Notes under the pieces: model-generated | Told to the model about the DNA's origin: nothing | The model's database searches: none | Seen by the model: only the letters and a program-made list of their open reading frames with translations | Shown: piece by piece, positions 5,123 through 25,387 of the stretch | Layout: each line of letters opens with the position of its first letter | How positions within the stretch are numbered: the stretch's first letter is position 1 | Source of the DNA: Desulfacinum hydrothermale DSM 13146 | Lineage (GTDB): Bacteria > Desulfobacterota > Syntrophobacteria > Syntrophobacterales > DSM-9756 | Assembly: GCF_900176285.1 (NCBI RefSeq) | Contig: NZ_FWXF01000001.1 | Span: 73,582 to 105,581 of the forward strand | DNA: 32,000 bases | Reading direction: 5' to 3' | Made by a program: the position numbers and the translations under genes

Positions 5123-5139
5123 GGCTTGGTTGAAAACGC

Positions 5140-5340: not shown

Positions 5341-5391
5341 CCTGGTTGAGTGGAGGAACGGGTGGAGGAAAGCTGGAAGGACCGGGAGATC

Positions 5392-6639: not shown

Positions 6640-6665
6640 CCCTGAAAAGAGATGGAGTGGCAAAG

Positions 6666-7454
6666 ATGGCCGACGACCCAAAAAGGCAAGACCCGCGGGT
6701 CTTCTTCGTGGGGGCGGGGCCCGGTGATCCGGAGCTCATCACCGTCAAAGGGCGGCGTCTTCTTCGGCGGGCGGATCGTGTGGTCTATGCGGGATCTCTC
6801 GTTCCCCGAGCCCTTTTGGATGAATGCAAGCCGGGAGCGGAGCTCTTCGACAGTGCCCCGCTGACCCTGGAGCGGACCCACGCCTTGCTCGTGGAGGCGG
6901 TGCGAGAGAACCGGATCGTGGTGCGCCTCCACACGGGGGATCCCGCCCTGTACGGGGCCATCCAGGAACAGATGAACCTGCTGGATCGGGAGGGGATCGC
7001 CTATGAGGTGGTTCCTGGGGTGTCCGCCGCCTTCGCCGCCGCGGCCCGCATCGGATGTCAGCTCACGTTGCCGGAAGTGTCCCAGACGGTGATCTTCACC
7101 CGGACCGCCGGGCGAACGCCCGTACCCGATCGGGAATCGCTCTCAAGTCTGGCGGCCCACGGCTCCACTATGGCCATCTACCTGAGTGTTTCCCAAATGG
7201 AAGCCGTGGTGGAGGCGTTGCGCGGAGCCTATCCGGAGGAGACGCCCGTGGTGGTGGTCTATCGGGTGGGCTGGCCCGATGAACGCATCCTTCAAGGAAC
7301 CCTGGCCCACATCGCCGCCAAGGTGCGCGAGGCGGGTATGGACCGGCAGGCGGTGATCCTGGTGGGGGAAGCGCTGAATCCCAAACGGTACGGGACCCGG
7401 TCCCGTCTCTACGACCAGTCGTTCAGCCATGGATTTCGATCCTCTCGCCCCTGA
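6666..7454 (+). CDS. cbiF: Cobalt-precorrin-4 C11-methyltransferase
   Basis: 262 aa from MADDPKRQ. Contains VFFVGAGPGDPELITVKG, HTGDPALYGA and PGVSA motifs. Confidence 0.9.
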   Translation: MADDPKRQDPRVFFVGAGPGDPELITVKGRRLLRRADRVVYAGSLVPRALLDECKPGAELFDSAPLTLERTHALLVEAVRENRIVVRLHTGDPALYGAIQEQMNLLDREGIAYEVVPGVSAAFAAAARIGCQLTLPEVSQTVIFTRTAGRTPVPDRESLSSLAAHGSTMAIYLSVSQMEAVVEALRGAYPEETPVVVVYRVGWPDERILQGTLAHIAAKVREAGMDRQAVILVGEALNPKRYGTRSRLYDQSFSHGFRSSRP

Positions 7455-8577
7455 TCTTCCCCGCCCGGTGGCGGTGCTGGCGCTCACGGCCAACGGCACC
7501 TCGGTGGCCTTGCGCCTTGGCCGTGAGCTGGACGCCTGCACCGTCCACGTGCCTCGACGCCATGGCTTCGCCTTGGCCATGGGGGCTGAGCCTTTCGATC
7601 GGCTGCGGGAGCGGGTCGGCGTGCTCTGGAAAGGGCATGGCGCCCTGGTTTTCGTCATGGCCACGGGCATTGTGGTGCGTTGCATCGCCCCGCTTCTCCG
7701 CCACAAGAGCTGCGATCCGGCGGTGGTGGTGGTGGACGAGAAGGGCCGGTTCGTCATCAGTTTGCTTTCAGGGCATTTGGGCGGCGCCAACCGGCTGGCG
7801 TGCCGTATCGCCCAGGTCCTGGGGGGACAGGCCGTCATCACCACGGCCACGGACGTGGAAGGAAAGACGGCCGTGGATCTCATGGCCCGGGAAGCGGGCC
7901 TGGAAATCGAGGCGCTGGAGCACCTACCGCGGGTGACCCGGGCGGTCCTGGAAGACGAGCCCTTCTGGATCCTGGATCCGGACGGATGGCTCAACCGCTA
8001 TCGGGACCGATTCCCTCGGGCGGTGTGGGTGTCGGTGTCACGGGAGATCTTCACCTCGGGGAAAGGGCCGAGACAGGTCGGTCGGATCCTTTCCGATCGG
8101 TTGTCCGCCCTGGGCATGGACCCACGAGACACGCCCGGCATCTGGGTTGGGGAATGGCTGCCTCCCAGAGGGCTGTTGGCCCTCTGTTTGCGACCCCGGG
8201 TTCTTGCGGTGGGAATCGGGTGCAACCGGGGCACTCCGGCGGAAGAAATCCTGCAACTGGTCCGGGATGTGTTCCAGCAGCACCGGCTGTCGCTTCAAGC
8301 CATTCGAACACTGGCCAGTGGGGACCTCAAGGCCCATGAGCCGGGCCTTCTGGAATCGGCACGGGTCCTGGACCGGCCCATCCAATTCGTCCAACGTGCC
8401 GAATTGCAGACGGTGGAGGTGCCCAACCCGTCGCCTGCGGTCAAGGCGCACATAGGAGTGGAAAGCGTATGCGAAGCAGCGGCTCTTCAAACGGCCCGGA
8501 ACGGTCGGCTGATCGTTCCGAAGCACAAGACTCGAAACGTTACGGTGGCGGTGGCTCGGGACGCCTCACCGTGGTGA
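7429..8577 (+). CDS. cbiG: Cobalt-precorrin-5A hydrolase
   Basis: 382 aa. Contains the CbiG-type block ATGIVVRCIAPLLRHKSCDPAVVVVDEKGRFVISLLSGHLGGAN and the C-terminal GIGCNRG..ESVCEAAAL domain. It overlaps the cbiF end by 26 nt. Confidence 0.9.
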   Translation: MDFDPLAPDLPRPVAVLALTANGTSVALRLGRELDACTVHVPRRHGFALAMGAEPFDRLRERVGVLWKGHGALVFVMATGIVVRCIAPLLRHKSCDPAVVVVDEKGRFVISLLSGHLGGANRLACRIAQVLGGQAVITTATDVEGKTAVDLMAREAGLEIEALEHLPRVTRAVLEDEPFWILDPDGWLNRYRDRFPRAVWVSVSREIFTSGKGPRQVGRILSDRLSALGMDPRDTPGIWVGEWLPPRGLLALCLRPRVLAVGIGCNRGTPAEEILQLVRDVFQQHRLSLQAIRTLASGDLKAHEPGLLESARVLDRPIQFVQRAELQTVEVPNPSPAVKAHIGVESVCEAAALQTARNGRLIVPKHKTRNVTVAVARDASPW

Positions 8578-9350
8578 GCCTGGGGCCGGGGGATGCCCTC
8601 CACCTGACCCCTCGGGCCCGGCAGGCCTTGGAAGAGGCGGATGTGATCGTGGGCTACAAGACCTATGTGGATCTCATCCGCCCCCTTGTCCAGGGAAAGG
8701 AAGTGCGGGCTTCCGGGATGAAGCGGGAGATTGCCAGGTGCCGGGAGGCCATCGAGGCGGCGGAGGAAGGCCGGCGGGTGGCGCTGGTTTCCAGTGGCGA
8801 TGCGGGAATCTACGGCATGGCCGGTCTGGTCTTCGATGTGTGTCGGGCCAAAGGCCTGCCCGTGAGGACCTGGGAGGGAGCCGAAGGGGGGAAGGCTCAG
8901 GGCCTGCGTGTGGAGGTGGTCCCGGGGGTGGCTGCCTTCAATGCGGCCGCGGCCCTGCTCGGAGCTCCGCTCATGCACGATTTCGCCGCCGTGAGCCTGA
9001 GTGACCATCTGACCCCGTGGGAACGCATCGAAAGGCGCCTGGATGCGGCGGCCGGCGCCGATTTCGTCATCGCCGTCTACAATCCACGCAGCAAAAGCCG
9101 TCCCGATCTGCTGGAAAAGGCCCGTGGGATCCTGTTGCGTCATCGGAGCGCGGAGACGCCCGTGGGTGTGGTGCGACGGGCCATGCGGGAAGGCCAGCGC
9201 TGCTGGATCACCACCTTGGGCGGGCTGGATCCGGAGGAGGTGGATATGCAGACCGTGCTGCTGGTGGGAAACAGCCGCACCTACGTGTGGGAAGGGCACC
9301 TGGTGACCCCCCGGGGCTATCTGGATAAGTACGGCGAAGAGAATCTTTGA
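8571..9350 (+). CDS. cbiH: Cobalt-factor III / precorrin-3B C17-methyltransferase
   Basis: Contains SLGPGD, SSGDAGIYGMAG and PGVAAFNAAAA motifs. I chose the GTG start at 8571 (GTGGTGA overlap with the cbiG stop). The only upstream in-frame ATG (8469) would overlap cbiG by 109 nt, so the start is uncertain. Confidence 0.85.
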   Translation: MVSLGPGDALHLTPRARQALEEADVIVGYKTYVDLIRPLVQGKEVRASGMKREIARCREAIEAAEEGRRVALVSSGDAGIYGMAGLVFDVCRAKGLPVRTWEGAEGGKAQGLRVEVVPGVAAFNAAAALLGAPLMHDFAAVSLSDHLTPWERIERRLDAAAGADFVIAVYNPRSKSRPDLLEKARGILLRHRSAETPVGVVRRAMREGQRCWITTLGGLDPEEVDMQTVLLVGNSRTYVWEGHLVTPRGYLDKYGEENL

Positions 9351-12406: not shown

Positions 12407-12703
12407 TCAACAGCAGCCTGAATCCAGACTGCAGCAGGAATCGCCTGTCCTTCCCAGAACCGAATTGATCACCGCCTGGGCGCACCCCACTCCCGTCTGG
12501 ACCCGGATGGCTTCCGTGGGGCAATTGCGGGCGCAGGCGCCGCACTCCATGCACGCGTCCCGGTCGGTGATACGTGCCTTGCCGTTTTCCTGGACGAAGA
12601 CCCCGTGGGGACAGACGAGGGAGCACATGCCGCAGCCCACGCAGCGCGACGCTTCGTATTGGAGACTGACCACGTCCTTCAGATAGACCAAATTGCCTCG
12701 CAT
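12407..12703 (-). CDS. hgcB: HgcB, 2x[4Fe-4S] ferredoxin partner of the mercury methylation corrinoid protein
   Basis: 98 aa, starting 22 nt after hgcA. Two CX2CX2CX3CP motifs (CVGCGMCSLVCP, CMECGACARNCP), a conserved-position Cys74, and a C-terminus ending in CC. Confidence 0.85.
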   Translation of the reverse strand: MRGNLVYLKDVVSLQYEASRCVGCGMCSLVCPHGVFVQENGKARITDRDACMECGACARNCPTEAIRVQTGVGCAQAVINSVLGRTGDSCCSLDSGCC

Positions 12704-12725: not shown

Positions 12726-13763
12726 TCACGATGTCCAGCGGGCCGTCAGCCACAAGCCCACGAAGGCCGCAAATCCTGCGATTTCCAGCGGTACGGCCCA
12801 GCGCATCTCCTTTTTGACGCCCGAAAGGGACGTGTAGGTGGACGCGCCGGTGAAGTTCATACCCAGATAGGCGGCCACGGAAACCGTTCCCAGGATCCAC
12901 GAAACCGCATCCAGGACGCCGGAGGCTCGCCCCGGGCCCAGGGGCCACAGCAGGGCGGTCGCCAGAAGTCCCGCCCAGATTCCCTTGGCGGCGAAGGCCC
13001 GGCCCGGCAGCCAGGGTAAAAGGAGCGGCGTGAGAACCGCTCCGGCGAAAACACCAGTGGTCATGGCCGTAACGGGCCCCAAGCCGAAAACGGCGGCCGC
13101 CGCCGCAAAGGAACCCGTGCCCAGGGCGCCGGCGAGTGCGAAAAAGATCACCGCCGCCAGTGCCAGCCACTTGAAGGCGTGCACCAGCTCCACGGGAATG
13201 AGGACCATCCGGTCGTACAAGCCGAAACGTTTACGGCGCATGGTGGGGGTGGCCTGCATGCCGGCATCGAGAAAGGCCGGCAGATCCCGGGCCTCCACCG
13301 GTCCAAACACCGCCTTGAAGCCGCATCGGGACCTGACCTTGTGGGCGGCCACTCCCGGGGCGCTCAGTTGCGGCAAAATGAGAAGACGGTGGTTCACCAC
13401 CCTGTCCAGTCCACTGGCTTGAACCCGAAAGACCAGCTCATCCGTCCCGAAGGTTCCCTTTCCCGCCGCACACCACACGTTGATACCCTTGGTGTCCAGG
13501 ACCAGGATCCAGGCGCAGCGGTCCTTCAAAGCCGATCGCAGATGGTCGAAGCTCAGCTTGTAATTGGCCGAGACCAGCACGGGGGCCTCCGAACCTGGTT
13601 CTCCCAGGGCGTAGAGGCCCGGATCCACCGTGTAGTGCATTCGGCCGACGCCCCAGCGGGCTTTTACGGTCCCCCAGCGGTCCCGACCCGTAAGCTGGCT
13701 CGAGACTTGGGGAATCGTCCCCGCGGCGGTTTCCACGCGGCCGATGACGAAGGGTTGATCCAA
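12726..13763 (-). CDS. hgcA: HgcA, corrinoid protein required for mercury methylation
   Basis: 345 aa. The diagnostic cap-helix motif GINVWCAAGKGTFG (Cys98, codon 13470-13472) lies in an N-terminal CFeSP-like corrinoid domain. The C-terminal half is strongly hydrophobic (multi-TM). TTG start per the ORF track. Confidence 0.9.
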   Translation of the reverse strand: MDQPFVIGRVETAAGTIPQVSSQLTGRDRWGTVKARWGVGRMHYTVDPGLYALGEPGSEAPVLVSANYKLSFDHLRSALKDRCAWILVLDTKGINVWCAAGKGTFGTDELVFRVQASGLDRVVNHRLLILPQLSAPGVAAHKVRSRCGFKAVFGPVEARDLPAFLDAGMQATPTMRRKRFGLYDRMVLIPVELVHAFKWLALAAVIFFALAGALGTGSFAAAAAVFGLGPVTAMTTGVFAGAVLTPLLLPWLPGRAFAAKGIWAGLLATALLWPLGPGRASGVLDAVSWILGTVSVAAYLGMNFTGASTYTSLSGVKKEMRWAVPLEIAGFAAFVGLWLTARWTS

Positions 13764-13963: not shown

Positions 13964-15259
13964 TCAAGTCGGTTCTCCAGCGGGTCGCGGGGCGCGGCTA
14001 AGAAAACCCAGAGCCGCCAGGTTCCCCACGATGGACAGGATGGCGATGGGCTGGAAGGATCCAAAATGTTCCCATAGGGCCGGGCCCACCAGGGCTCCCA
14101 GAACCCTTCCCGCCACCAGCAGGCTGTAGTTGGCGGCCAGCCATTTGCCTCTTTCGCTGGGAGCCAACTGGGAGATGTAGGGAAAAGAACTCACCACGGA
14201 GAATTCAAAGAAGTAGGCCATGGCCATGAGGCTTGCCAGGGCCGCCGCCAGCGAATCGGTCACGAAGGTGAGCAGGAGGTAGCTGGCGGCGGTTCCCACG
14301 ATGCCAAGGGTGAGCCCCCTGCGCTTTCCCAGCCGGTCCACCAGGAGCGCCACGGAGATTTCCGCACAGAATTCGCTGAGACCCAGCAGCGTGGAAAAGA
14401 GCCCCAGCGACTGGACATTGAGACCGAACCGGGATTCCATCCACGCCCCGTAGACGATCATGACGTTTTCATTGCCGCAAAAAATACAAAAGGTGACCGC
14501 CAGCGCCAGCCAGATGCGCCGGGAAGGAACGTTGGGGGCCGCGCTGCCGGTTCCGGACCTTTCAGAAGAGGCCGGTTCGGGGCCGCCGCCCGCGGGCGCA
14601 TCGGGCAACCGGAAGGTGGCCGCAAACAGGAAGACAGCCAGTGCCAGCAGGAGCAGATAGGGCGAGTCCCACCCCCACCGGGCGATCAGCAGGCCGCTCA
14701 AGGGAATGCCCAGAAACCAGCTGGCGGACCAGGACGATTCCACCAGGCCCAGGGCGCGGGCCCTGTGGCGGTAACCCACATGGGCGCTCACATAGGATTG
14801 CACGGACGGATTGTAGACGGCCGTGGCCAGTCCCATCACCACGAAGCCGGTGAAGACGATCCAGTAGTTTTGGGAGACGGTGACCAGAAAGCAGCTGACC
14901 AGCAGGAAGGCGATTCCCAGAAGGAGCCCGGCCTTGTAACCGCGTTTCTCGGCGAAGATGCCAAAGGCGATTCCCGAAAGGCCCACCAAGGATCGGGCCG
15001 CCATCATGAGTCCCGCTTGTTCCAGGCTGATGCCCAACCCCCGTGCCATGGCCGGCAGGAAGGGATAGGCCACCCGGAAGCTCATATTGAGCACAATGCG
15101 ACTGGCGATGAGAAGGAGCCAGGTGCGGCCCCGCATACCCAAGAACACGGTCTCCATCCTGGTTCGGGAAATGGTGAGAATCCGCAAGACAAACCAAGGA
15201 CCTATACTCCGAATCGAAAAGGGACACAAGCGTTCCCGAAGGAGCTTGCCCGAACCCAT
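13964..15259 (-). CDS. MFS transporter, unknown substrate
   Basis: About 12 hydrophobic segments split 6+6 by a central loop (APAGGGPEPASSERSG). The true start is probably internal (METVFLG at 15157 or MRGRTW at 15136), because TM1 begins at WLLLIASRIV. Confidence 0.85.
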   Translation of the reverse strand: MGSGKLLRERLCPFSIRSIGPWFVLRILTISRTRMETVFLGMRGRTWLLLIASRIVLNMSFRVAYPFLPAMARGLGISLEQAGLMMAARSLVGLSGIAFGIFAEKRGYKAGLLLGIAFLLVSCFLVTVSQNYWIVFTGFVVMGLATAVYNPSVQSYVSAHVGYRHRARALGLVESSWSASWFLGIPLSGLLIARWGWDSPYLLLLALAVFLFAATFRLPDAPAGGGPEPASSERSGTGSAAPNVPSRRIWLALAVTFCIFCGNENVMIVYGAWMESRFGLNVQSLGLFSTLLGLSEFCAEISVALLVDRLGKRRGLTLGIVGTAASYLLLTFVTDSLAAALASLMAMAYFFEFSVVSSFPYISQLAPSERGKWLAANYSLLVAGRVLGALVGPALWEHFGSFQPIAILSIVGNLAALGFLSRAPRPAGEPT

Positions 15260-15579: not shown

Positions 15580-15607
15580 AAGAAAACGCTTCGTTCTTTT
15601 CGAAGCG
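15580..15607 (-). terminator. Intrinsic terminator following the B12-like aptamer
   Basis: Minus strand reads CGCTTCG-AAAAGAA-CGAAGCG followed by TTTTCTT. Confidence 0.7.
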
Positions 15608-15644: not shown

Positions 15645-15836
15645 CGTTTGGGGCTTTCTGACCAGTTGAAACTTCACCGGCCCCGTGGTGCTAGACAGCC
15701 GCAGTGGGGGCGGGTTCAGAACCCGCCCCCACTGCGGCAGGGCCAGGCCGGCAGCATGGGCCCGTCTGGTAGTCCCAAGCTTCCGTCCGTTTAAGAAGGG
15801 AACCACCCTAGGGTTCTCCCACAGCCTTCTAGCCCC
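15645..15836 (-). promoter_or_regulatory. Divergent cobalamin-riboswitch-like aptamer upstream of MFS-hgcA-hgcB
   Basis: Minus strand contains GGGGCT, then GGTTCCCTTCTTAAACGGACGGAAGCTTGGGACTACCAGACGGGCCCATGCTGCCGG, then a 17-bp perfect hairpin (15698-15738), then GCACCACGGGGCCGG, then B12-box-like GGTCAGAAAGCCCC. The same block order is seen in the canonical copy at 3450-3612. Confidence 0.6.
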
Positions 15837-16191
15837 AGTGTCCTTCCACGTCCGGGCCGTTGCTCTCTGCATACACGCCCCGTTTGAAGTTTTCCACCGC
15901 CTCCCGAATCGTTCCGGACACCTGGGTGTAGACAGGAATGCCGGCGGCCTGGAGCGTTCGAAAGGCCTTGGGACCGCAATGCCCTGTGAGAACCGCGTCC
16001 GGTTTGTGGCGCGAGACGGTCGTGGCGGCCTGGATCCCCGCCCCTTGCGACGCCTGAAGGTTCTGCGTGTTGGGAACCACCTGGTAGTCCAAGGTCTCCG
16101 TATCAACCATGAGAAAATAGGGCGCCCGGCCAAAGCGAGCGTCCACCGGGCTGTTCAGGTCCTCACCCGAGCTGCTGACGGCCACTTTCAT
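15829..16191 (-). CDS. NifX/NifB-C-terminal (MTH1175-like, Nitro_FeMo-Co) domain protein
   Basis: 120 aa. MKVAVSS...RFGRAPYFLMVD... is typical of the small dinitrogenase FeMo-cofactor-binding-like family. Confidence 0.85.
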   Translation of the reverse strand: MKVAVSSSGEDLNSPVDARFGRAPYFLMVDTETLDYQVVPNTQNLQASQGAGIQAATTVSRHKPDAVLTGHCGPKAFRTLQAAGIPVYTQVSGTIREAVENFKRGVYAESNGPDVEGHWG

Positions 16192-16206
16192 GATGTCCCT
16201 CGCTTT

Positions 16207-17472
16207 TTAGTGATCACAAACATTGGCACCGGTCACCAAGTTCCCCTGGAGATAGCTGTTCACCAGAGTTTCGGGATCCAGGGCGGGAGCTCCCGTCAGG
16301 ACCTGAACCCCGCGTTCCTGGAACAGGCTGATGGCCCGTTGGCCCATGCCGCCCGCGATGACCAGGTTCACACCTTGTTCGGCGATCCATCGAGGGAGCA
16401 CACCGGGTTCGTGGGGAGGTGGGGTCCGTTCTTCCCTGCTTTCAATGCGGCCGTTCTGAACGGTCAGGATGGCAAACCGTTCGCAATGTCCAAAATGATT
16501 GCACAACATCCCGTTGGCCAAAGGGATGGCCACCTTGAAGTTGTCCTTTTCCATCCGCGGTACCTCCTTTGTCACATCGCTGGTCATGGCTTCGGTCTTC
16601 TCCTCCGGTAGAGGTGGAGAACACTTGTCAATCACTTCCGAAAGAAGCCCGTTGAGGCTCTCCAAAAAAGGTCCCGAAGCATCGGAACCGACCTCCAAGG
16701 GCATACCGGCGTCACCGGCCTCCACCACACGCGGTTCGAACGGCAGAGAGCCCAGGAAGGGAATGTTCATGCGTTCGGCCGTCTTACGGCCCCCTTCGGT
16801 CCCAAAAAGCGGAACGCTCTTTCCGCAATGGGGGCACACGAGCCCACTCATATTTTCCACCAGCCCCAGAATGGGCAGATGGGCCTTCCTGCAGAAATTG
16901 ATGGATTTTCTCACATCGCTCAGGGCCACCTCCTGTGGCGTTGTCACGATAACGGCGTGGACGTCCGGGATGATCTGGGCCACGCTCAGGGGTTCATCCC
17001 CCGTCCCGGGCGGGCAATCGATGATCAGATAATCCAGATTTCCCCACTGGACCTCCGAGACAAACTGGCGGATCACGCCGTGTTTGATGGGGCCGCGCCA
17101 GATAACCGCTGAATCGGGGTCTTCCAGCAGGCATTGGATGGAAACCACTTGCAGATTCTCGTTGACCTGGACGGGAACGAGATGTTTTTGGTCGTCCACC
17201 TGGAACATCCCCGTGATGCCCAACATCTTGGGAATGCTGGGACCATGCAGGTCCGCATCCATAAGCCCCACGCGATACCCCTTTTGGGAAAGCCCGAAGG
17301 CCATGTAGGTGGCCACACTGCTTTTCCCCACGCCACCCTTACCGCTCATCACCAGGAGCTTGTGTTGAATTCGCCGCAACTGCTCTTTCAACCGGAGCTC
17401 TTCAGCGGCTTCTTCCCTTTTTGCTGCTTCCGCATCCGTTCCGCACGTATGGGAAGGGCACGATGTAGCCAT
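16207..17472 (-). CDS. Mrp/ApbC/NBP35-type Fe-S cluster carrier ATPase fused to a C-terminal NifX/MTH1175-like domain
   Basis: Deviant Walker A motif SGKGGVGKSS and a CPHCG motif, then a C-terminal ~110-aa block (FKVAIPLANG..HFGHCERFAIL..) resembling the neighbouring NifX-like ORF. Confidence 0.88.
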   Translation of the reverse strand: MATSCPSHTCGTDAEAAKREEAAEELRLKEQLRRIQHKLLVMSGKGGVGKSSVATYMAFGLSQKGYRVGLMDADLHGPSIPKMLGITGMFQVDDQKHLVPVQVNENLQVVSIQCLLEDPDSAVIWRGPIKHGVIRQFVSEVQWGNLDYLIIDCPPGTGDEPLSVAQIIPDVHAVIVTTPQEVALSDVRKSINFCRKAHLPILGLVENMSGLVCPHCGKSVPLFGTEGGRKTAERMNIPFLGSLPFEPRVVEAGDAGMPLEVGSDASGPFLESLNGLLSEVIDKCSPPLPEEKTEAMTSDVTKEVPRMEKDNFKVAIPLANGMLCNHFGHCERFAILTVQNGRIESREERTPPPHEPGVLPRWIAEQGVNLVIAGGMGQRAISLFQERGVQVLTGAPALDPETLVNSYLQGNLVTGANVCDH

Positions 17473-17564
17473 GATCTTCTCTCCTTTTTCCTTTCAACGT
17501 CAGAATGGGATGGCAAACCGGAGGAGGTCCCGTGGTGCCAGACATCCTCCGGCACTTCAACTGT

Positions 17565-17581
17565 AGACAACTTTCGTGCCG
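17565..17581 (-). promoter_or_regulatory. Candidate sigma-54 promoter upstream of the mrp-nifX-like gene
   Basis: Minus strand reads CGGCACGAAAGTTGTCT. The GGCACG -24 element is good and the spacing correct, but the -12 element is TTGT rather than TTGC. It lies about 95 nt upstream of ATG 17472. Confidence 0.35.
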
Positions 17582-17669
17582 AATGGAGCCAAAGGGCTCT
17601 TCACTTGGAGATTCTTGGGATCCGAAGGGGACAGTGGGCGTTTCTCTCCTCCCGAGGGTGACCGGAGTT

Positions 17670-17686
17670 GGGTTCAGGTTGAACCC
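17670..17686. promoter_or_regulatory. Perfect inverted repeat GGGTTCA-GGT-TGAACCC (possible activator site or hairpin)
   Basis: Lies immediately after the activator gene stop codon (17687-17689) and about 90 nt upstream of the -24/-12 candidate at 17565-17581. Confidence 0.3.
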
Positions 17687-19135
17687 TTAGTCGCGCTCTA
17701 ATGGGGGCATCGTGTTCCCGGAGGGCTGCAGGGCCTCCAGGCCGTAGCGGCGGATCTTACGCCGCAGGGTGTTCTTGTCGATGCCCAGCTCACGTGCCGT
17801 GGCCATGCGCTTCCAGTTGTTGCGTTCCAGGGCTTCCCAAATGGCGCGCTTTTCGATTTCCTGAAGCGTCCAGCCCTGGAGCGGCTGGAACCCGCGCACC
17901 TCCTTTTGAAGGTGTTCCGGCAGATGGTCCGGGAGGATCCACCCGTTGCGGCACAGAATGAAGGCATGTTCAATGGCGTTTTCCAGTTCGCGGATGTTTC
18001 CGGGCCAATCGTGGCGCATGAAGACCTGAAGGGCTTCGGGGCTGAGGCCCAAAATCTTCTTTCCCTGCAGACGATTGAACCGATCGATGAAGTGTTCCAC
18101 CAGGAGAGGGATGTCTTCCCGTCTTTGGGCCAGCGGCGGAAGCCACAACTTGACCACGTTGACCCGGTAGTAGAGATCCTTGCGAAAGATCCCCTCTTCC
18201 ACCAGCTGGCTGAGGTCTTTGTTGGAGGCGGCGATGATCCGCACGTCCGCCTTGAGGCTCCTGGACGATCCCAAGGGTTCGTACACCTTTTCTTCCAGAA
18301 CCCGCAGGAGGCGCACCTGCAGGGCGGGGGACACGTCACCGATCTCATCCAGAAAGAGGGTGCCACCTTGAGCCATGGCGAAGCGGCCGGCCCGGCTCTT
18401 CTTGGCGTCCGTGAAGGCCCCCGCCACATGGCCGAACAGCTCCGATTCCAGCAGGGTGTCGGGCAGGGCCCCGCAGTTGACGGCCACGAAGGGGCCCTTG
18501 GACCGGCGGCTCAAGGAATGAAGCGTGCGGGCCAGTACTTCTTTTCCGGTACCGCTTTCCCCCTGAATGAGGACCGTGCTCTCGCTCTGGGCGATCTCCG
18601 GAAGGATCGCAAAGAGCTTCTGCATGGCGGGCGCTTTGCTCAGAATGTCTCCGAACCGGTATCTCTTGTGGATCTCCTGGCGCAGTTTCTCCACCACGGT
18701 GAGATCCCGAAAGGTCTCCACCCCGCCCACCGTTCGGCCGTGTTTGTCTTTCAACAGAGCCGTGCTGACGCTGATGGGTACTTCCCGGTTGGAGGCGTTC
18801 AGGATCGCCACGGGACGGTCCACCACCGGCCGGCCCGTCTCCATGGTGTGGCGCAGCACGCAGGCCGTCTCACACACACTGGCCCGGAAGACCTCACAGC
18901 ATGGACGGCCCAGGGCTTCTTCGGCTGGGATTTCCGTGATCCTTTCCGCCGCGCGATTGAAGAAGGTGACGCGAAAATCGGCGTCCACCGTGAAGACGCC
19001 GTCGGTGATGCTGTCCAGGATGGTCCGCGTCCATTCCGGAGCCGGCACGCCGGGATCGGCTATCCGCTTGTCTTCGGGATTGCCCGTGGGACACGCGGCC
19101 TTGTTCATGGAATCCATCCTGCGCATCATCCGCAC
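17687..19135 (-). CDS. Sigma-54-dependent transcriptional activator (PAS - AAA+ - Fis-type HTH)
   Basis: Contains a PAS region (ILDSITDGVFTVD...), Walker A GESGTGKEV, ESELFGH..GAFTDA, and a C-terminal HTH (ATARELGIDKNTLRRKIRRYGL). Several alternative starts lie at 19108-19135. Confidence 0.9.
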   Translation of the reverse strand: MRMMRRMDSMNKAACPTGNPEDKRIADPGVPAPEWTRTILDSITDGVFTVDADFRVTFFNRAAERITEIPAEEALGRPCCEVFRASVCETACVLRHTMETGRPVVDRPVAILNASNREVPISVSTALLKDKHGRTVGGVETFRDLTVVEKLRQEIHKRYRFGDILSKAPAMQKLFAILPEIAQSESTVLIQGESGTGKEVLARTLHSLSRRSKGPFVAVNCGALPDTLLESELFGHVAGAFTDAKKSRAGRFAMAQGGTLFLDEIGDVSPALQVRLLRVLEEKVYEPLGSSRSLKADVRIIAASNKDLSQLVEEGIFRKDLYYRVNVVKLWLPPLAQRREDIPLLVEHFIDRFNRLQGKKILGLSPEALQVFMRHDWPGNIRELENAIEHAFILCRNGWILPDHLPEHLQKEVRGFQPLQGWTLQEIEKRAIWEALERNNWKRMATARELGIDKNTLRRKIRRYGLEALQPSGNTMPPLERD

Positions 19136-19173
19136 TTCGTCATCCGAAATGCGGGCTGGGTGATGGGTCTGCC

Positions 19174-20043
19174 TCAGGGGCCGTCGAAGGCGAAGCCACA
19201 GACGGCTTCCCAGATCCTTTCGATTTCTCTCATGACTTGCGTTTCACCATAATCGACCAGGCTCCGCCCGTCAACTTGGGCCCGGGTGACCAGGGGATCG
19301 AAGGGAATGTGGCCCACAAAACGGGCGCCGGACGATACCGCCGCTTCCGCGATCCGATCCGCCTGGGCCCTGTGCAGGTCGGCCTTGTTGATGCAGACCG
19401 CCGCCGGGACCTTGAAATGTCGGGTCAATTCCAAGACTCGTTCCATGTCGTGGCGCCCGGACTGGGTGGGCTCGGAGACCACGAGCACCGCGTCGGCGTT
19501 TCCGATGGAGGCAATCACAGGGCAGCCCACACCGGGGGGGCCGTCGGTGAGGAGGCGCTCCACGCCCTCTTCTTCCGCCAGGCGTCGGGCTTCGGTGCGA
19601 ACAAGGGACACCAGCTTTCCGGAATTTTCTTCGGCAATGCCCAACCGGGCATGGACCATGGGCCCATAAGGAGTCCTGGAAACGAACCACTCCCCGCACG
19701 TCTTTTCCGGGAAGTCCACCGCCCCCGCAGGGCACAGGTGGGCGCACACCCCGCACCCTTCACACAGAAGCGGTTCCACGCGAAAGTGTTCGTTGATCGC
19801 TCCAAACCGGCACCAATCCAGGCAAAGACCGCATTGGGTGCACTTGTCCGAATCGATGACGGCCTCATGGCCGGCCGCAAAGGGATGGCGTTCCAGGAGT
19901 TCAGGCCGAACCACCAGGTGCAGATCCGCCGCGTCCACATCCGCGTCGCACAGGACCACTTTTCTCGCCAAGGCGGCAAAGGCGGCCACCAGGCTCGTCT
20001 TTCCCGTGCCCCCCTTACCGCTGATAACCACCAGTTCCTTCAT
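19174..20043 (-). CDS. MinD/ParA-family P-loop ATPase with 2x[4Fe-4S] ferredoxin insert
   Basis: Contains SGKGGTGKTS, plus CTQCGLCLDWC and CEGCGVCAHLCP motifs inserted after the P-loop. Confidence 0.85.
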   Translation of the reverse strand: MKELVVISGKGGTGKTSLVAAFAALARKVVLCDADVDAADLHLVVRPELLERHPFAAGHEAVIDSDKCTQCGLCLDWCRFGAINEHFRVEPLLCEGCGVCAHLCPAGAVDFPEKTCGEWFVSRTPYGPMVHARLGIAEENSGKLVSLVRTEARRLAEEEGVERLLTDGPPGVGCPVIASIGNADAVLVVSEPTQSGRHDMERVLELTRHFKVPAAVCINKADLHRAQADRIAEAAVSSGARFVGHIPFDPLVTRAQVDGRSLVDYGETQVMREIERIWEAVCGFAFDGP

Positions 20044-20058
20044 TCAAGAGGCTCCTCT

Positions 20059-20916
20059 TCAGCAGGCTGCTTTCCAAGACCGCAGGGTCTCCAGGATCTT
20101 TTCGTAGAGCTGTACCATGGCCTCTTTCCACTGGGGAAGCACCTCCACCAGCAGGCTTCCGCGGGCATAGGCTTCGGCCGTTTTCTTGTCGAAGGGCATT
20201 TCCAAGAGGATGGGGATGCCCTGCTGCTCGGCAAAGCGGTGGACCCGGCGGTCCCCGATGTCGCATCGGTTGATCACCAGTCCCATGGGCAGACCCAACT
20301 TGCGCACCGCGCCCACGGCCAGTTCCAGGTCGTTGAGGCCGAAGGGGGTGGGCTCCGTGACCAGCAGGGCAAAATCAGCTCCCCACAGGCTGGCCACCAC
20401 GGGGCAGGAAGTGCCGGGGGGAGCGTCGATGAGAGTGAGCTCCCCCTCCAAACCCTGATGCTTTCGCACCTGCTCGATCAAAGGCGGCGCCATGGCCTCG
20501 CCCACCCGAAGGCGTCCTTCCACAAGGCTCACCATGCCCCGGCAGCCCCAGCGCACCTCCCCCACCAGGCGCTTGGACCAGCCGATGGCCTCTTCTTGAC
20601 AGACAAGGGCGCACCCTCTGCAGCTATGGCACAGCTCCGGGAAGGTCATGGCGATTTCGGGCAGGATGGCAATGGCGTTGAACTGGCAAAGTTCCTGACA
20701 GGCACCGCACAGGCTGCACCGTTCCGCATCGATTTCCGGTACGTCCAGGTGGAACAGCTCCGACCCCGTCCAGCGAGGTTGCAAAAAGAGATGCGCATTG
20801 GGCTGCTCCACGTCGCAATCCAGAAGGGTTACAGGCTTTTCCAGACCGGCGGCCAGGTTGCACGCAATGGTGGTCTTGCCGGTGCCCCCCTTGCCGCTGG
20901 CGATGGCGATGATCAT
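20059..20916 (-). CDS. MinD/ParA-family P-loop ATPase with 2x[4Fe-4S] ferredoxin insert (paralog)
   Basis: Start at MIIAIASGKGGTGKTT (ATG 20916, GGGAGGGA RBS, ATGA overlap with the upstream ORF). Contains CSLCGACQELC and CHSCRGCALVC motifs. The 50-aa N-terminal extension in the track is spurious. Confidence 0.85.
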   Translation of the reverse strand: MIIAIASGKGGTGKTTIACNLAAGLEKPVTLLDCDVEQPNAHLFLQPRWTGSELFHLDVPEIDAERCSLCGACQELCQFNAIAILPEIAMTFPELCHSCRGCALVCQEEAIGWSKRLVGEVRWGCRGMVSLVEGRLRVGEAMAPPLIEQVRKHQGLEGELTLIDAPPGTSCPVVASLWGADFALLVTEPTPFGLNDLELAVGAVRKLGLPMGLVINRCDIGDRRVHRFAEQQGIPILLEMPFDKKTAEAYARGSLLVEVLPQWKEAMVQLYEKILETLRSWKAAC

Positions 20917-21539
20917 GCGTTCCCTCCCCGAACCATGGCTGTGCCGCATTGGGGACATACGACCTGTGTGCATGGGATGCCCCGCTGATGCTTTACCTTT
21001 TCTCCACACTGGGGACAGACACAGGTGCCGGCCGGTGCGCCCTGGCCGCGGCCGGCCCCTTGGCAAGCGCCTCTTCTTTGGCCTCCACCCCCCTGACCTC
21101 GGCCCTGTCCCCCGCCGCGCTGTCCGGATCCTTTTCCGCTACCAAATGCCATGATGTCTCCTTCCGAATGGATTTTCGGGGTGGGTGGTCCAGGCCTTCG
21201 GTATCGCCTGGGTCCACGACACCCGGGCAGCCAGAATCTGCTCTGGTCCAGCTTCCCCTCTTTGTAAGCTTCCAGGACTTCTTCCAGCTCGCCCGCCACC
21301 CCATGGATGATGTGGATGCCCAGTCCTTGGGCGTAATGGAGCAGCTCCGGGCTCAATGCACCGCAAATGAGCGTGCGAATCCCTTGCGCCCTCAATGCGG
21401 CCAGGCGTTGGTAGGGACGGGAATCCGACAGATCCAGGAGTTTCGCACTGGAATCGCCGGCCATCCCCACCACCACGATCTTGGTGCTCCAGTCCAATAC
21501 CGGGGCCACCCGGCCCCGCAAAACCGCTATCGCCACCAT
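20913..21539 (-). CDS. NifX/MTH1175-like domain continuous in frame with a Gly/Arg-rich segment and a CxCPxCG..CPxCG zinc ribbon
   Basis: Start at MVAIAVLRG (ATG 21539, GAGGAGGAG RBS). There is no stop before 20913. An internal ATG at 21152 has its own GGAAGGAGA RBS, so the tail may also be made separately. Confidence 0.65.
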   Translation of the reverse strand: MVAIAVLRGRVAPVLDWSTKIVVVGMAGDSSAKLLDLSDSRPYQRLAALRAQGIRTLICGALSPELLHYAQGLGIHIIHGVAGELEEVLEAYKEGKLDQSRFWLPGCRGPRRYRRPGPPTPKIHSEGDIMAFGSGKGSGQRGGGQGRGQGGGGQRRGACQGAGRGQGAPAGTCVCPQCGEKVKHQRGIPCTQVVCPQCGTAMVRGGNA

Positions 21540-21567
21540 GGCCCGTCTCCTCCTCGCCGGCTCTGAA

Positions 21568-21584
21568 AAGCATTCTTCATGCCA
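21568..21584 (-). promoter_or_regulatory. Candidate sigma-54 (-24/-12) promoter for the nifX-like/minD-like operon
   Basis: Minus strand reads TGGCATGAAGAATGCTT, with GG/GC at consensus spacing. It lies about 30 nt upstream of ATG 21539, with the RBS in between. Confidence 0.55.
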
Positions 21585-21712
21585 AGCACGTCGGTGCGGA
21601 GCCGGGGACGGAGGACAGGGCTCACAATCTAATATAAAAACGTTGGGATAGGGCCTGACAGAAGAAGGAAGGGGGAGGGTTGGTGAAGAGGAGAAAAAGG
21701 CAGTTGGGGCCC

Positions 21713-21737
21713 CGGGTGGGTTCAAAACGCACCCACC
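21713..21737. promoter_or_regulatory. GC-rich inverted repeat GGTGGGT-N9-ACCCACC (terminator of the upstream small gene or activator site)
   Basis: 7-bp arms extendable by CCCC/GGGG. Contains GGGTTCA. It lies about 55 nt after the rubredoxin-like stop codon and about 130-150 nt upstream of the -24/-12 candidate. Confidence 0.3.
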
Positions 21738-21792
21738 TGGGGGGCCGTCCTTTATCCCAGCCTTTCAGCGGCGCAGTGGGAGCCGGAAGCGC

Positions 21793-21981
21793 TTACTTGT
21801 CCGACTTGTAGCTTTCCTGAAAGACTTGGGGATTGACGTTACCCGAATCCGGGCCGCCGCATTCGGGAATGTAGCAGGTCACATCGATGAATTCGCACTT
21901 TTCCTTGCAGGAAGGGCAGGTCTCCGGCGGGGTGGTGGCCTCCACGGTATTGCCGCACTTGTTACATTTCCAAACGCTCAT
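21793..21981 (-). CDS. Small rubredoxin-like zinc-ribbon protein
   Basis: 62 aa from [10 protein letters not shown] (GGAGGAGA RBS). The CxxC...CxxC pairs are CNKC and CPSC, with further Cys residues beyond them. Confidence 0.6.
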
Positions 21982-22167: not shown

Positions 22168-22929
22168 TCACGGACTCACCAGCAGGCTCGAACAGGTGAG
22201 GCCCGCTTCGGCCTTTCGCAGCTCGGAGATGTCCACGGTTTCCACGGAAAATCCGGCTTGGCGCAGCATCCTTTCCGTCCGGGCAAATCCTTGGGCCACA
22301 AGCACCGACCGGTGGAGCCGCAGGATGTTGGCGGCTTCGGCTTCCTCTTCGGGGACTTCCAAAACGCGGAAGCCGCCGAAGGGCTCCATGTCGATCCACG
22401 CCGGGTAGGCCACCAGGGTGTGATCGTCGGCGGCCGTGACGGCGGTCTTGAGATGCAGACAGCCGTGCACCTGGACCGGCTTCACCTGGTAGCCGTGGGG
22501 AGCCAGGATGGCCCGAAGCTGTTCCATCCCGTCCCGGTTGGTGCGCAACGAAAGGCCCACAAACAAGGTCTTGCCCACGCGCAGGACGTCCCCTCCGTCC
22601 AGGGTGCCCGGGGCCTGGATGGCTGCCAGAGGGCGGTAGCGGGCCAACGCAGGCCGGATCCCGGCCACTTCCTCCCTTCGGGAAGGCGCCCCCGGCCGGC
22701 ATAGAACAGCGATTTCGTCCAGCACCACGGCGGTATCTTCCACGAAGACGGAATCCGGTAGATGCTCGTTGACGGTGAGTTCCTCCACGGAAAAGCCGTG
22801 GCGGCGCAGGACGTCCTGGTAGGCCGCGTGCTGTCGCCGGGCCCGATCCAGATCCAGCGGCTCCCTCACGCGATGGGTCAGTTCACATTGGTGGATGTTG
22901 GGCGAGACGCGATGGGTGATGGCGATCAT
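22168..22929 (-). CDS. Dimethylarginine dimethylaminohydrolase / amidinotransferase-superfamily enzyme
   Basis: 253 aa from MIAITHRV, with a C-terminal catalytic-type motif AEAGLTCSSLL. The rest of the 582-aa track ORF is antisense to the DUF554 gene. Confidence 0.78.
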   Translation of the reverse strand: MIAITHRVSPNIHQCELTHRVREPLDLDRARRQHAAYQDVLRRHGFSVEELTVNEHLPDSVFVEDTAVVLDEIAVLCRPGAPSRREEVAGIRPALARYRPLAAIQAPGTLDGGDVLRVGKTLFVGLSLRTNRDGMEQLRAILAPHGYQVKPVQVHGCLHLKTAVTAADDHTLVAYPAWIDMEPFGGFRVLEVPEEEAEAANILRLHRSVLVAQGFARTERMLRQAGFSVETVDISELRKAEAGLTCSSLLVSP

Positions 22930-23139
22930 TTCGTTAGCCTTCCAAGCGGAATGGGTTGGGTGTTCCGGAAATGAAGGATCACAGGTCACGGCCGTCCCAC
23001 GGCGGACCGCGGTCCATCCTACACGAACCGCTTGCCTCTTTCCACGGGGAGGTCTATGGTCTATCTTCCGTTGGGTCGGCATGGGAAAGCGGGAACTTTT
23101 CAGGGGCTTGGCACGCCGAGAAGGCGTTTCCAGAGTGGG

Positions 23140-23850
23140 ATGGCTATGGTCGGCACGGCGATCAATGTGACCACAGTGGTGACGGGGGGCCTCATCGGGA
23201 CCTTCCTGGGGGCCCGGCTTCCGCAAAACACGCAGCGTTCCGTGATGCACGGTTTGGGGCTCCTGACCCTGGTCATCGGCATGCAGATGGCCATGAAGAC
23301 GGAGAACGTTCTCATCCTGCTGGGGGCCATCCTGGTGGGGGTTATCGTGGGGGAGGGGCTGCAACTTCAGACGGGGCTGGAACGACTGGGCAACCGGCTG
23401 CAGGCCCTGTTCAAGGCGGGAACCCATTCCACGGTGAGCGAAGGCTTCGTGACGGCCAGCCTGGTCTTTTGCGTGGGGCCCATGGCCATCCTGGGATCCC
23501 TTCAAGACGGCCTGTCGGGCGATTTCAAGCTGCTTGCCATCAAATCCATGCTGGACGGCTTCGCCGCCATCGCCTTTTCGGCCAGCCTGGGCTGGGGCGT
23601 GCTTCTGTCGGCGGTGAGCGTCTTTTTGTACCAAGGAAGCATCACCCTGCTGGCCGCCGGACTGGACAGGATCCTCACCCCGGAAATGATCACGGAAATA
23701 TCCGCCGCCGGCGGGCTCCTCATCGCCGCCATAGGGCTCAAGCTCTTGAACGTAAAGGATATTCGCATCGCCAACTTTCTGCCGGCCCTGGCCGTAGCTC
23801 CGGTCATCGTGGCCCTGCTGCCGCTTCTCAAGGCCTGGTGGCCCTACTGA
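23140..23850 (+). CDS. DUF554 (YdfK/YqgA-like) membrane protein
   Basis: Close resemblance throughout to the YqgA pattern (GTAINV..GGLIG, FVTASLVFCVGPMAILGSLQDGL, LYQGSITLLA). Start at 23140 or 23146. Confidence 0.8.
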   Translation: MAMVGTAINVTTVVTGGLIGTFLGARLPQNTQRSVMHGLGLLTLVIGMQMAMKTENVLILLGAILVGVIVGEGLQLQTGLERLGNRLQALFKAGTHSTVSEGFVTASLVFCVGPMAILGSLQDGLSGDFKLLAIKSMLDGFAAIAFSASLGWGVLLSAVSVFLYQGSITLLAAGLDRILTPEMITEISAAGGLLIAAIGLKLLNVKDIRIANFLPALAVAPVIVALLPLLKAWWPY

Positions 23851-23887
23851 TCCAGGGACCGGCGCGGAAACGCCCAGGAGTCTACAC

Positions 23888-25387
23888 ATGAAGTGCACCG
23901 ACTTTCCCGAATCCATCCGTCCTTACGTGGTGCCGGAAGTGGCCGGCCGATACATCTATCGCTGTCTGGGCTGCCAGGCGACCTTCGGGGTGGAAGAGCT
24001 GCTCTACACGTGCCCTCAGTGCGGCAGCGTGCTCATGATCCGGGATGAGGACTGGGATCGGCTGAAGGCCATACCCGGTCCCACCTGGCGACGCATTTTC
24101 GATTATCGTGCCATGGTGACGGAACCGGCCCTCAAAGGGATCTACCGCTTTCACGAACTGCTGGGTTCGATCCTGCCCCTGGACGCCGTGATCTACCTGG
24201 GCGAAGGGCACACGCCTGTGGTGCAGGCCAACGCCAAGATGCGCGACTGGGTGGGTCGGCCGTTCTTCTTCAAAAATGACGGGCAAAACCCCAGTGCCTC
24301 CTTCAAGGACCGGGGCATGGCCAGCGCCTTCAGCTACCTCAATCACCTCATCAAGAGCCAGGGCCTGACCCAGGTGTTGGCTGTCTGTGCCTCCACGGGG
24401 GACACGTCCGCCGCGGCGGCCCTCTACGCGTCCTACCTGGTGGACGGAGTGACCTCCGCCGTGCTGCTGCCCCAGGGCAAGGTGACTCCCCAGCAGCTGA
24501 GTCAACCCTTGGGCAGCGGCGCGCGGGTCATCGAGATCCCCGGGGTCTTCGACGATTGCATGAAGATCGTGGAATACCTGGCGGAACACTATCCGGTGGC
24601 TCTCATGAACTCCAAGAACGCCTGGCGCATCCTGGGGCAGGAATCCTACAGCTACGAAATCGCCCAGGCCTTCGACTACGAGGTGGCCGATCTGGTGGTG
24701 ACGGTCCCCATCGGAAACGCGGGCAACATCACGGCGGTCATGGCGGGCTTTCTCAAGCTTCACGACCTGGGGATCATCACCCAACTGCCGTGGATCCTGG
24801 GCGTCCAGTCCCACCACGCCGATCCGGTCTATCGCTACTATCTGGAACCGGATCCCCAAAAGCGGGAATTCCGGCCGGTGACGGTGCAGCCCAGCGTGGC
24901 CCAGGCGGCCATGATCGGCAATCCGGTCAGCATGCCCCGGGTGGTCCAGCTGGTGGAGCAGTTCCGGTCCATCGCGGGAGACCAGGCGGTCCAGGTGGTT
25001 CAGGTGACGGAACAAGAGATCATGGATGCCATGCTGCGGGCCAACCGAAACGGGCACATCGCCTGCACCCAGGGCGGCGAGTGCCTGGCGGGATGGCGGC
25101 GAGCCGTTGCGGATGGAGCCATCCCGGACGGAAAGGTGGGCGTGCTGGACGCCACGGCCCACGCGCTCAAGTTCGCCATCTTCCAGGAAAAGTACTTTGA
25201 GGATCGCTTCGAGCCCGAATTCGGCGTGGTGCCCAAGGAAGAACTGCGGAATCGCCCGGTGCTGGTGCGCCCTCCCCAGGGGGTGCCCTGTCCGGTGCCG
25301 GGAGCGGGCATGGACGCCGAGTCCTTCCGCGCCTTCGTGACGGCCACGGGCGACGCCGTGGCGTCCATGCTTGGCTTGCGAAAATAG
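23888..25387 (+). CDS. thrC: Threonine synthase (long form with N-terminal zinc ribbon)
   Basis: Contains the PLP-lysine motif NPSASFKDRG, an N-terminal CLGC...CPQCG zinc ribbon, and CASTGDTSAA. Confidence 0.85.
   Translation: MKCTDFPESIRPYVVPEVAGRYIYRCLGCQATFGVEELLYTCPQCGSVLMIRDEDWDRLKAIPGPTWRRIFDYRAMVTEPALKGIYRFHELLGSILPLDAVIYLGEGHTPVVQANAKMRDWVGRPFFFKNDGQNPSASFKDRGMASAFSYLNHLIKSQGLTQVLAVCASTGDTSAAAALYASYLVDGVTSAVLLPQGKVTPQQLSQPLGSGARVIEIPGVFDDCMKIVEYLAEHYPVALMNSKNAWRILGQESYSYEIAQAFDYEVADLVVTVPIGNAGNITAVMAGFLKLHDLGIITQLPWILGVQSHHADPVYRYYLEPDPQKREFRPVTVQPSVAQAAMIGNPVSMPRVVQLVEQFRSIAGDQAVQVVQVTEQEIMDAMLRANRNGHIACTQGGECLAGWRRAVADGAIPDGKVGVLDATAHALKFAIFQEKYFEDRFEPEFGVVPKEELRNRPVLVRPPQGVPCPVPGAGMDAESFRAFVTATGDAVASMLGLRK

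Follow-up and report, generated by a model that had tools for sequence, protein, structure and literature searches.

The closest described relative of the locus considered here is the orp (ORange Protein) system of Desulfovibrio vulgaris Hildenborough (DvH), to which we compare a block of seven genes at 15829-21981 of a 32-kb stretch of DNA from Desulfacinum hydrothermale DSM 13146 (contig NZ_FWXF01000001.1; the whole stretch of 32,000 nucleotides is called the window below). One of the proteins of this system, Orp5, is a small Cys-rich protein and a homologue of the [2Fe-2S] protein of the ORP operon of Desulfovibrio gigas. The DvH cluster, DVU2103-DVU2109, consists of orp3, orp4, orp5, orpR, orp7, orp8, and orp9, with the structural genes organized in the operons orp7-orp8-orp9 and orp5-orp4-orp3 (PMC8359166). 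According to the summary of Fievet 2011 given in PMC6345978, two sigma-54 promoters drive these operons, and Orp3, Orp4, Orp5, Orp8, and Orp9 form a physical complex. Orp9, also named MrpORP, transferred an Fe-S cluster in vitro to apo-aconitase and to Orp proteins (PMC6345978), and the orange protein itself, ORP, is cited in the same paper as binding Mo-Cu-S clusters. The regulator OrpR has a PAS domain whose [4Fe-4S] cluster senses redox potential, and the regulon of OrpR as determined by chromatin immunoprecipitation sequencing (ChIP-seq) consists of the orp operons only (PMC8359166). Integration host factor (IHF) acts as a co-activator, and in DvH it occupies a position between the sigma-54 promoter and the OrpR site (PMC3897727). 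Loss of orpR in DvH causes a cell-morphology defect that has been attributed to loss of the Orp proteins (PMC8359166). A search of the literature for newer functional work on ORP returned nothing after 2021.

The seven genes of the Desulfacinum block, labeled g1-g7 along the minus strand (Table 1), very probably constitute an orp locus whose content is orthologous to that of DVU2103-DVU2109. The system is a known one and the host, a member of the Syntrophobacteria, is new. Common to both loci are a PAS-AAA+-HTH activator with the Cys motif of OrpR and the GAFTDA loop, MrpORP, ORP, NifX-like proteins, and two MinD-like ATPases with two [4Fe-4S] ferredoxin motifs each; the tail of g2 is a candidate counterpart of the small Cys-rich protein. 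In both, moreover, a 17-bp palindrome is found upstream of either of two sigma-54 promoters, which in the window are candidates. The assignment draws on gene content, signature motifs, conserved promoter and upstream activating sequence (UAS) elements, and conserved synteny, all of which were observed directly.

The original prediction for this stretch had described a cluster of seven genes on one strand. All seven were confirmed on the minus strand with minor coordinate corrections, and the domain calls proved correct by Pfam profile annotation (CbiA/ParA, Fer4, Sigma54_activat, Nitro_FeMo-Co). Its rubredoxin-like zinc ribbon corresponds to g1, its NifX-like protein with a zinc-ribbon tail to the NifX-like N-terminal half and Cys-rich tail of g2, and its Mrp/ApbC-NifX fusion and stand-alone NifX-like protein to g6 (ParA/NUBPL plus Nitro_FeMo-Co) and g7 (Nitro_FeMo-Co), respectively. 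The likeness to DVU2103-DVU2109 that it pointed out is real. What has to be revised is its view of the cluster as functionally uncharacterized and with no assigned function, since the orp system is named and its regulation, its complex, and its role in Fe-S maturation have been studied experimentally. Likewise, its account of genes joined by ATGA overlaps or gaps of 13-38 nt is valid only inside the sub-operons, where g2 and g3 overlap by ATGA and the gaps are 15 nt (g3-g4), 38 nt (g4-g5), and 15 nt (g6-g7). It fails across the long gaps of 253 nt between g1 and g2 and 214 nt between g5 and g6, both of which hold candidate promoters.

The protein encoded by g6 scores 540.1 bits against the NCBIfam equivalog NF041136, "iron-sulfur cluster carrier protein MrpORP" (cut-off 450). 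The name MrpORP is also carried by its closest database relatives, which come from Desulfacinum infernum (80% identity to g6), Desulfosoma, and Desulfoglaeba. The signatures described for MrpORP, GKGGhGK[ST], CXXC, and TPPPHxPGxxP (PMC6345978), appear in g6 as GKGGVGKS at residue 44, CPHC at 213, and TPPPHEPGVLP at 350. By these matches g6 is assigned as MrpORP (Orp9), in which an Mrp/NBP35 P-loop domain is fused to a Di-Nase (NifX-like) domain. The same two-domain architecture, Walker A motif, CXXC, and TPPPHxPGxxP occur in Orp9 and in Dde3202 of D. alaskensis G20, and g6 resembles the short form of G20 in lacking the long linker of the DvH protein (PMC6345978). The neighboring g7 matches Nitro_FeMo-Co (PF02579) with 82.5 bits. 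Its best match among all solved structures is the orange protein of D. gigas (PDB 2WFB, "ORP"; E = 8e-21), which aligns with residues 2-114 and ranks above MTH1175; the sequence is close also to MTH1175 and TM1290-type proteins. From this similarity g7 is assigned as ORP (Orp8), an orange protein predicted to bind a Mo-Cu-sulfide cluster.

The regulatory gene of the block provides a further set of diagnostic residues. In DvH OrpR, C52, D/E54, C61, and C65 are required for redox sensing (PMC8359166). The PAS domain of g5 contains C79-C-E81-x6-C88-x3-C92, with a spacing of the Cys and acidic residues equal to that of C52/[DE]54/C61/C65. Moreover, the loop by which activators of this kind contact sigma-54 has in g5 the variant sequence GAFTDA, the form listed for DVU2106 (PMC4641369). 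The orp-linked activators in related loci share these features, the Cys motif in 11 of 11 and GAFTDA in 10 of 11. With its PAS, AAA+, and HTH_8 domains, g5 is on these motifs an OrpR-type sigma-54 activator.

The products of g3 and g4 are MinD-like P-loop ATPases. Each has exactly two CX2CX2CX3C motifs, as had been predicted: CSLCGACQELC and CHSCRGCALVC in g3, CTQCGLCLDWC and CEGCGVCAHLC in g4, with GKGGTGKT as the Walker A sequence (P-loop) of both. The two proteins are 32% identical to each other (47% positives). An amphipathic helix forms the C-terminus of each, and its hydrophobic moment lies at the 98th percentile in g3 and is the highest of the whole protein in g4. Orp3 and Orp4 are described in the same terms, as paralogous MinD-like ATPases with two [4Fe-4S] ferredoxin motifs each and a C-terminal amphipathic helix (PMC6345978); by position, g3 would be Orp4-like and g4 Orp3-like. 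The deviant Walker A motif and the C-terminal amphipathic helix are shared with MinD itself, and MinD structures are among the nearest solved relatives of both. For g4, a sequence search of the structure database gave MinD proteins and domains of ferredoxins as the closest entries and no solved orthologue. Unlike MinD, however, g3 and g4 carry the double [4Fe-4S] ferredoxin insert after the P-loop. Their minD_arch scores of 44.5 and 51.7 bits do not come near the cut-off of 201.75, and neither minC nor minE is found within the cluster.

The remaining structural gene, g2, departs from the DvH arrangement by joining two modules in a single open reading frame (ORF). Its true start codon is the ATG at 21539, and the outer limits given earlier for the cluster stand. 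The NifX-like, Orp7-like domain (residues 1 to ~110) scores 25.4 bits against Nitro_FeMo-Co, just under the cut-off of 26.3. After a Gly-rich linker there follows an Orp5-like Cys-rich tail (residues 130-208) with the pattern C-x-C-P-x-C-G...C-x4-C-P-x-C-G. A search with g2 returned 246 homologue clusters (E <= 0.001), and among the 120 best of these most are ~200 aa long, align over nearly their full length, and are unnamed. Other loci keep the two halves apart. In one Desulfobacteraceae locus (L009) they are separate genes: a NifX-like gene of 132 aa directly before MrpORP, and a gene of 67 aa before the MinD-like pair, encoding a Gly-rich protein that ends in C-x-C-P-x-C-G...C-P-x-C-G. In three further loci (L010, L012, and L014) the halves match at separate places, the C-terminal part of the tail again at a site before the MinD-like pair, and in all four loci the counterparts of both halves flank MrpORP. 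By position and architecture, the separate 132-aa and 67-aa genes would correspond to orp7 and orp5, which g2 appears to unite in one ORF. In L009, the ORP-like gene (6718-7437) itself continues into a long repeat rich in Gly and Met (GMGMGRGGG...), followed by a short tail that resembles a coiled coil; this is another mode of attachment of a Gly-rich linker to orp proteins.

Regulatory elements were compared between the window and the upstream regions of five related loci, those of Desulfosoma caldarium (L081), Desulfoglaeba alkanexedens (L082), a Desulfosoma metagenome-assembled genome (L084), and two distant loci (L002 and L001). GGCA-N7-TG is found upstream of every g2 and g6 orthologue in these five loci. 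Before the ATG of the g2 orthologues it lies at 45-51 nt in the window, L081, and L084 and at 84-133 nt in L082, L002, and L001; the promoters of the g6 orthologues read TGGCAC-N5-TTG[C/A] at -82 to -116. The candidate -24/-12 promoters proposed originally at 21568-21584 and 17565-17581 are supported by this positional conservation, with limits now set as in Table 1. Upstream of g1, no sigma-54-like element was found in the four loci checked (window, L081, L082, and L084).

Each of the two promoters is accompanied by an upstream palindrome. The experimentally defined OrpR site of DvH is GGGCGYRTTTTGCGCCC (PMC8359166), and UAS1 is identical to it at 14 of 17 positions, which makes it a candidate OrpR-binding site for the g2-g3-g4 operon. 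UAS1-type palindromes occur upstream of the g2 orthologues in L081, L082, L084, and L001. UAS2, with perfect arms, is on similar grounds a candidate OrpR site for the g6-g7 operon, and palindromes like it are found at the same place in L082, L001, L081, and L084. The half-sites read GGGTGC/GCACCC in the window and GGGCGC/GCGCCC in DvH. The conserved pairs of promoter and UAS give a cross-genus consensus for the OrpR site, GGGTGC-N5-GCACCC. In the AT-rich patch between UAS1 and P1, the IHF-like sequence TATAAAAACGTTG has one mismatch to WATCARNNNNTTR.

Table 1. Genes and sequence elements of the orp block, and the hgcAB region downstream of it, in window coordinates
Feature	Position	Strand	Length	Description
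g1	21793-21981	-	62 aa	Rubredoxin-like; PF21349 (RUBY_RBDX) above cut-off
g2	20913-21539	-	208 aa	NifX-like N-terminal half, weak Nitro_FeMo-Co; Gly-rich linker; Cys-rich tail
g3	20059-20916	-	285 aa	CbiA/ParA P-loop and Fer4
g4	19174-20043	-	289 aa	CbiA/ParA P-loop and Fer4
g5	17687-19135	-	482 aa	PAS, Sigma54_activat, and HTH_8
g6	16207-17472	-	421 aa	ParA/NUBPL and Nitro_FeMo-Co
g7	15829-16191	-	120 aa	Nitro_FeMo-Co
UAS1	21718-21734	-	17 bp	Imperfect palindrome GGGTGCGTTTTGAACCC; center ~155 bp upstream of the P1 -12 element; candidate OrpR site
IHF-like site	21633-21645	+		TATAAAAACGTTG; in AT-rich patch between UAS1 and P1; sequence match only
P1, sigma-54 -24/-12	21569-21584	-		TGGCATGAAGAATGCT; ~30 nt upstream of the g2 ATG; candidate promoter
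Sigma-70-like element	19246-19274	-		TTGACG-17-TATGGT; within g4 near its 3' end and ~110 nt before orpR; consensus match only
UAS2	17670-17686	-	17 bp	Perfect-armed palindrome GGGTTCAACCTGAACCC; begins right behind the orpR stop codon; -12 element of P2 ~110 bp further downstream; candidate OrpR site
P2, sigma-54 -24/-12	17566-17581	-		CGGCACGAAAGTTGTC; 94 nt upstream of the g6 ATG; candidate promoter
Perfect palindrome	15698-15738	.	41 bp	~90 nt after the g7 stop; 20-nt arms with 1 nt between
Intrinsic-terminator-like hairpin	15587-15607	-		With T-run; ~220 nt after g7; consensus match only, 9 found vs 8.0 expected
MFS transporter	13964-15259			Between the orp cluster and hgcAB
hgcA	12726-13763	-		NF040863 451.8 bits (cut-off 275); motif NVWCAAGK
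hgcB	12407-12703	-		NF040864 126.8 bits (cut-off 99); two ferredoxin motifs, CC end

Conservation of gene order extends this picture beyond single genes. The seven-gene order, including g1, is repeated in four loci, from Desulfosoma caldarium (L081), Desulfoglaeba alkanexedens (L082), and two Desulfosoma-related assemblies (L084 and L085), and permuted or collinear orders of orp type occur in many other anaerobes. Non-conservation of the genes had been named as an observation that would count against a common module; in the synteny survey the block proved to be co-conserved across genera. A scan for relatives of g6 returned at least 80 loci, and neither DvH nor the closest relatives of the window are among those listed. 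Among the 80 listed, the best match spans a fused MrpORP in 29; many of the contigs are short, yet 20 of the 29 have an ORP-like gene and the MinD-like pair is present in 15. In the other 51 the best match covers the Mrp domain only; these are mostly ordinary Mrp paralogues without orp neighbors, together with a few orp loci in which Mrp and NifX are separate genes. The Desulfosoma loci also have a gene for a universal stress protein (Usp) between the second MinD-like gene and orpR (4976-5281 in L081, 4620-5078 in L084), which is found neither in the window nor in Desulfoglaeba.

The presence of three proteins matching Pfam Nitro_FeMo-Co could point to a module for carriage or maturation of the nitrogenase-type cofactor (FeMo-co), in which NifX-like proteins shuttle the precursor and the P-loop Fe-S ATPases are NifH-like. 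The C-terminal FeMo-co carrier domains of NifX, NafY, and NifB do share PF02579 with g7, with the C-terminal domain of g6, and weakly with the N-terminal domain of g2, and g3 has some similarity to Fer4_NifH and BchX. These last scores are far under the cut-offs, however (19 vs 25 bits and 22 vs 331 bits), g7 is closest to the orange protein structure 2WFB rather than to NifX or NafY, and g6 belongs to the MrpORP equivalog rather than to a nitrogenase-type family. Nor are there nitrogenase genes in the neighborhood, as originally stated: none of nifHDK, nifEN, or nifB is among the annotated genes of the window. Unlike NifX and NafY, then, the window proteins have no nitrogenase context and fall in the ORP/MTH1175 branch, for which we know of no role in FeMo-co synthesis, and the idea of a nitrogenase-cofactor module is very improbable. 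A broader proposal is that the orp proteins serve the storage or trafficking of metalloclusters (Fe-S or Mo/W-S) for anaerobic enzymes, maybe including neighbors such as HgcAB, rather than cell division. Metal-cluster binding is predicted for all structural proteins of the block, and the cluster transfer by MrpORP to apo-aconitase and Orp proteins in vitro (PMC6345978) and the Mo-Cu-S binding of ORP (as cited there) would both fit such a role, as would the order of orp, MFS, and hgcAB, which is kept in the window and the Desulfosoma loci. On the other hand, the morphology defect of the DvH orpR mutant is attributed to loss of the Orp proteins (PMC8359166), and the adjacency to hgcAB, seen only in the window and in Desulfosoma, is absent in Desulfoglaeba. 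A trafficking role in place of one in cell division is considered unlikely.

It is equally improbable that the seven genes merely lie next to each other, with an activator that has other targets. The two long gaps interrupt the array and the promoter matches are imperfect (P1, TGGCATGAAGAATGCT, has two mismatches to the sigma-54 consensus), as chance adjacency would have it. Yet the block stays together across genera while its outer neighbors differ between the window and Desulfosoma on one side and Desulfoglaeba on the other. GGGT-N9-ACCC has three matches in the window, UAS1, UAS2, and one that is not palindromic, so that g2 and g6 are the only genes of the window preceded by UAS-like palindromes, and the DvH regulon determined by ChIP-seq is restricted to orp operons (PMC8359166). 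Both the nitrogenase-cofactor role and chance adjacency are thus disfavored, and the original description of a coherent, self-regulated module is borne out to the extent that the genes are co-conserved, two sigma-54 promoters are supported, and the cluster looks self-regulated.

Assignment as an orp locus is itself confronted with several observations that weigh against it. The two divergent operons around orpR in DvH have no equivalent in the window, where all genes are collinear on one strand; as collinear and permuted orders are found in other anaerobes, the divergent layout looks specific to DvH rather than defining. The -12 element of P2 reads TTGT instead of TTGC. In the g6 promoters of the family TTG may be followed by C, A, or T, a range that includes the TTGT of the window. 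A scan of the window for the sigma-54 consensus gave 23 matches against 16 expected, which is not significant alone for either promoter, so both were judged by whether their positions are conserved between loci. At P2, the region upstream of g6 yielded no IHF-like site. Orthology to Orp3, Orp4, Orp5, and Orp7 is proposed from architecture, position, and published descriptions. Finally, even in DvH the link with cell division is a proposal, and its authors call the role "still unclear" (PMC8359166).

With the block taken as an orp locus, a working scheme can be proposed in which every biochemical step is carried over from experiments in DvH. OrpR (g5) would bind the 17-bp palindromes upstream of the two sigma-54 promoters. 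At low redox potential a [4Fe-4S]2+ cluster would be bound in its PAS domain by C79, C88, and C92, close to E81, and its AAA+ domain would remodel sigma-54 RNA polymerase on DNA that is probably bent by IHF. This would switch on both operon A (g2-g3-g4) and operon B (g6-g7), and oxidative damage to the cluster of g5 would turn them off. MrpORP (g6), carrying a [4Fe-4S] cluster on CPHC, would load Fe-S clusters onto g3 and g4. These two, ORP (g7, with a non-covalent Mo/Cu-sulfide cluster), and the Orp5-like tail of g2 would form one complex, probably associated with the membrane or the cell pole via the C-terminal amphipathic helices of g3 and g4. Cell division or morphology, the published working idea for the complex, would be the process served.

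Other features distinguish the window locus from that of DvH. The block opens with an extra conserved gene, g1, which precedes the first OrpR-type site. Its product scores 30.6 bits against PF21349 RUBY_RBDX (cut-off 26.5), falls under the cut-off of NF045720, and has seven Cys, including CNKC and CPSC. A 62-aa PF21349 gene is found at the same position in L081, L082, L084, and L085, and L001 has a g1-like ORF after its ORP gene; no such rubredoxin-like gene is described in the DvH orp papers cited here. A second difference is the fusion of Orp7-like and Orp5-like modules in g2. Within this gene, a ribosome-binding site, GGAAGGAG at ~21158-21165, followed by an in-frame ATG at 21152, precedes the small module, and this ATG coincides with the start of the stand-alone Orp5-like gene in other genomes. 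Given so strong a ribosome-binding site at that point, the small Fe-S module could also be translated alone. The third difference concerns orpR, which in the window lies 38 nt downstream of operon A, so that read-through from P1 could add positive feedback. In DvH, orpR is provided with a separate sigma-70 promoter (PMC8359166, legend to Figure 1). The sigma-70-like element inside g4 is a possible counterpart, judged by its sequence, where two matches to the consensus were found in the region against 1.1 expected. A tentative and rather doubtful extension of these observations is that the orp loci of Desulfacinum, Desulfosoma, and Desulfoglaeba are a rewired variant, in which g1 would be a lineage-specific redox partner, g2 would yield both a fusion and a free small Fe-S protein, and read-through of orpR from P1 would provide positive feedback in place of separate sigma-70 control of the DvH type.

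Beyond the 3' end of the block, the 41-bp palindrome would form, as RNA, a GC-rich hairpin of 19 bp (-54.9 kcal/mol, z = -5.2). No T-run follows it, no copy occurs elsewhere in the window, and it is not conserved in the five related loci; it is probably a transcript-end or stabilizing structure. Its core, GGGTTCTGAACCC, with GGGTTC/GAACCC, resembles the UAS half-sites, and its interpretation as a third OrpR site was rejected because the spacing differs and the related loci do not conserve it.

The surroundings of the block vary more than the block itself. The gene upstream of g1 is different in all three lineages (window, Desulfosoma, and Desulfoglaeba). Downstream, the MFS-hgcAB run is common to the window and Desulfosoma and is not found in Desulfoglaeba, so the adjacency of orp and hgcAB looks lineage-specific rather than functional. 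In the window, hgcAB lies two genes downstream of the orp cluster, past the MFS transporter, and with hgcA and hgcB present the organism is a predicted mercury methylator. The run shared with Desulfosoma consists of orp, MFS, an HgcA-sized gene (346-386 aa; in L085 with a CdhD Pfam match), a 97-98-aa ferredoxin, and Zn_ribbon_8, followed by MsrAB in L081 and L084; it occupies 8760-14538 in L081, 8844-12039 in L084, and 8856-12039 in L085. Other annotated neighbors in the window, besides hgcAB and the MFS transporter, are MsrAB, a dimethylargininase-like gene, a DUF554 gene, and thrC. A block for anaerobic cobalamin synthesis (1371-9350; CbiC, CbiD, CbiG, and several TP_methylase genes, one of them CbiE/T-like) is also present, as is a FecCD-type permease (319-1374), and Desulfoglaeba has a similar cbi block near its orp locus. 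On the minus strand, the 582-aa mechanical ORF at 22168-23916 is mostly spurious: only its last ~250 aa match dimethylargininase-type models, below cut-off (243.5 vs 340 bits), and the likely start is the Met of MIAITHRV.... The DUF554 gene (23032-23850, +) overlaps the upstream part of this ORF on the opposite strand.

The orp family has already been surveyed and is partly named by NCBI's annotation pipeline, and the Desulfacinum locus adds one member, from a lineage of thermophilic sulfate reducers. It is useful for comparison: from the collinear arrangement, the fusion in g2, and the conservation of the rubredoxin-like gene one can see which parts of the system move together.

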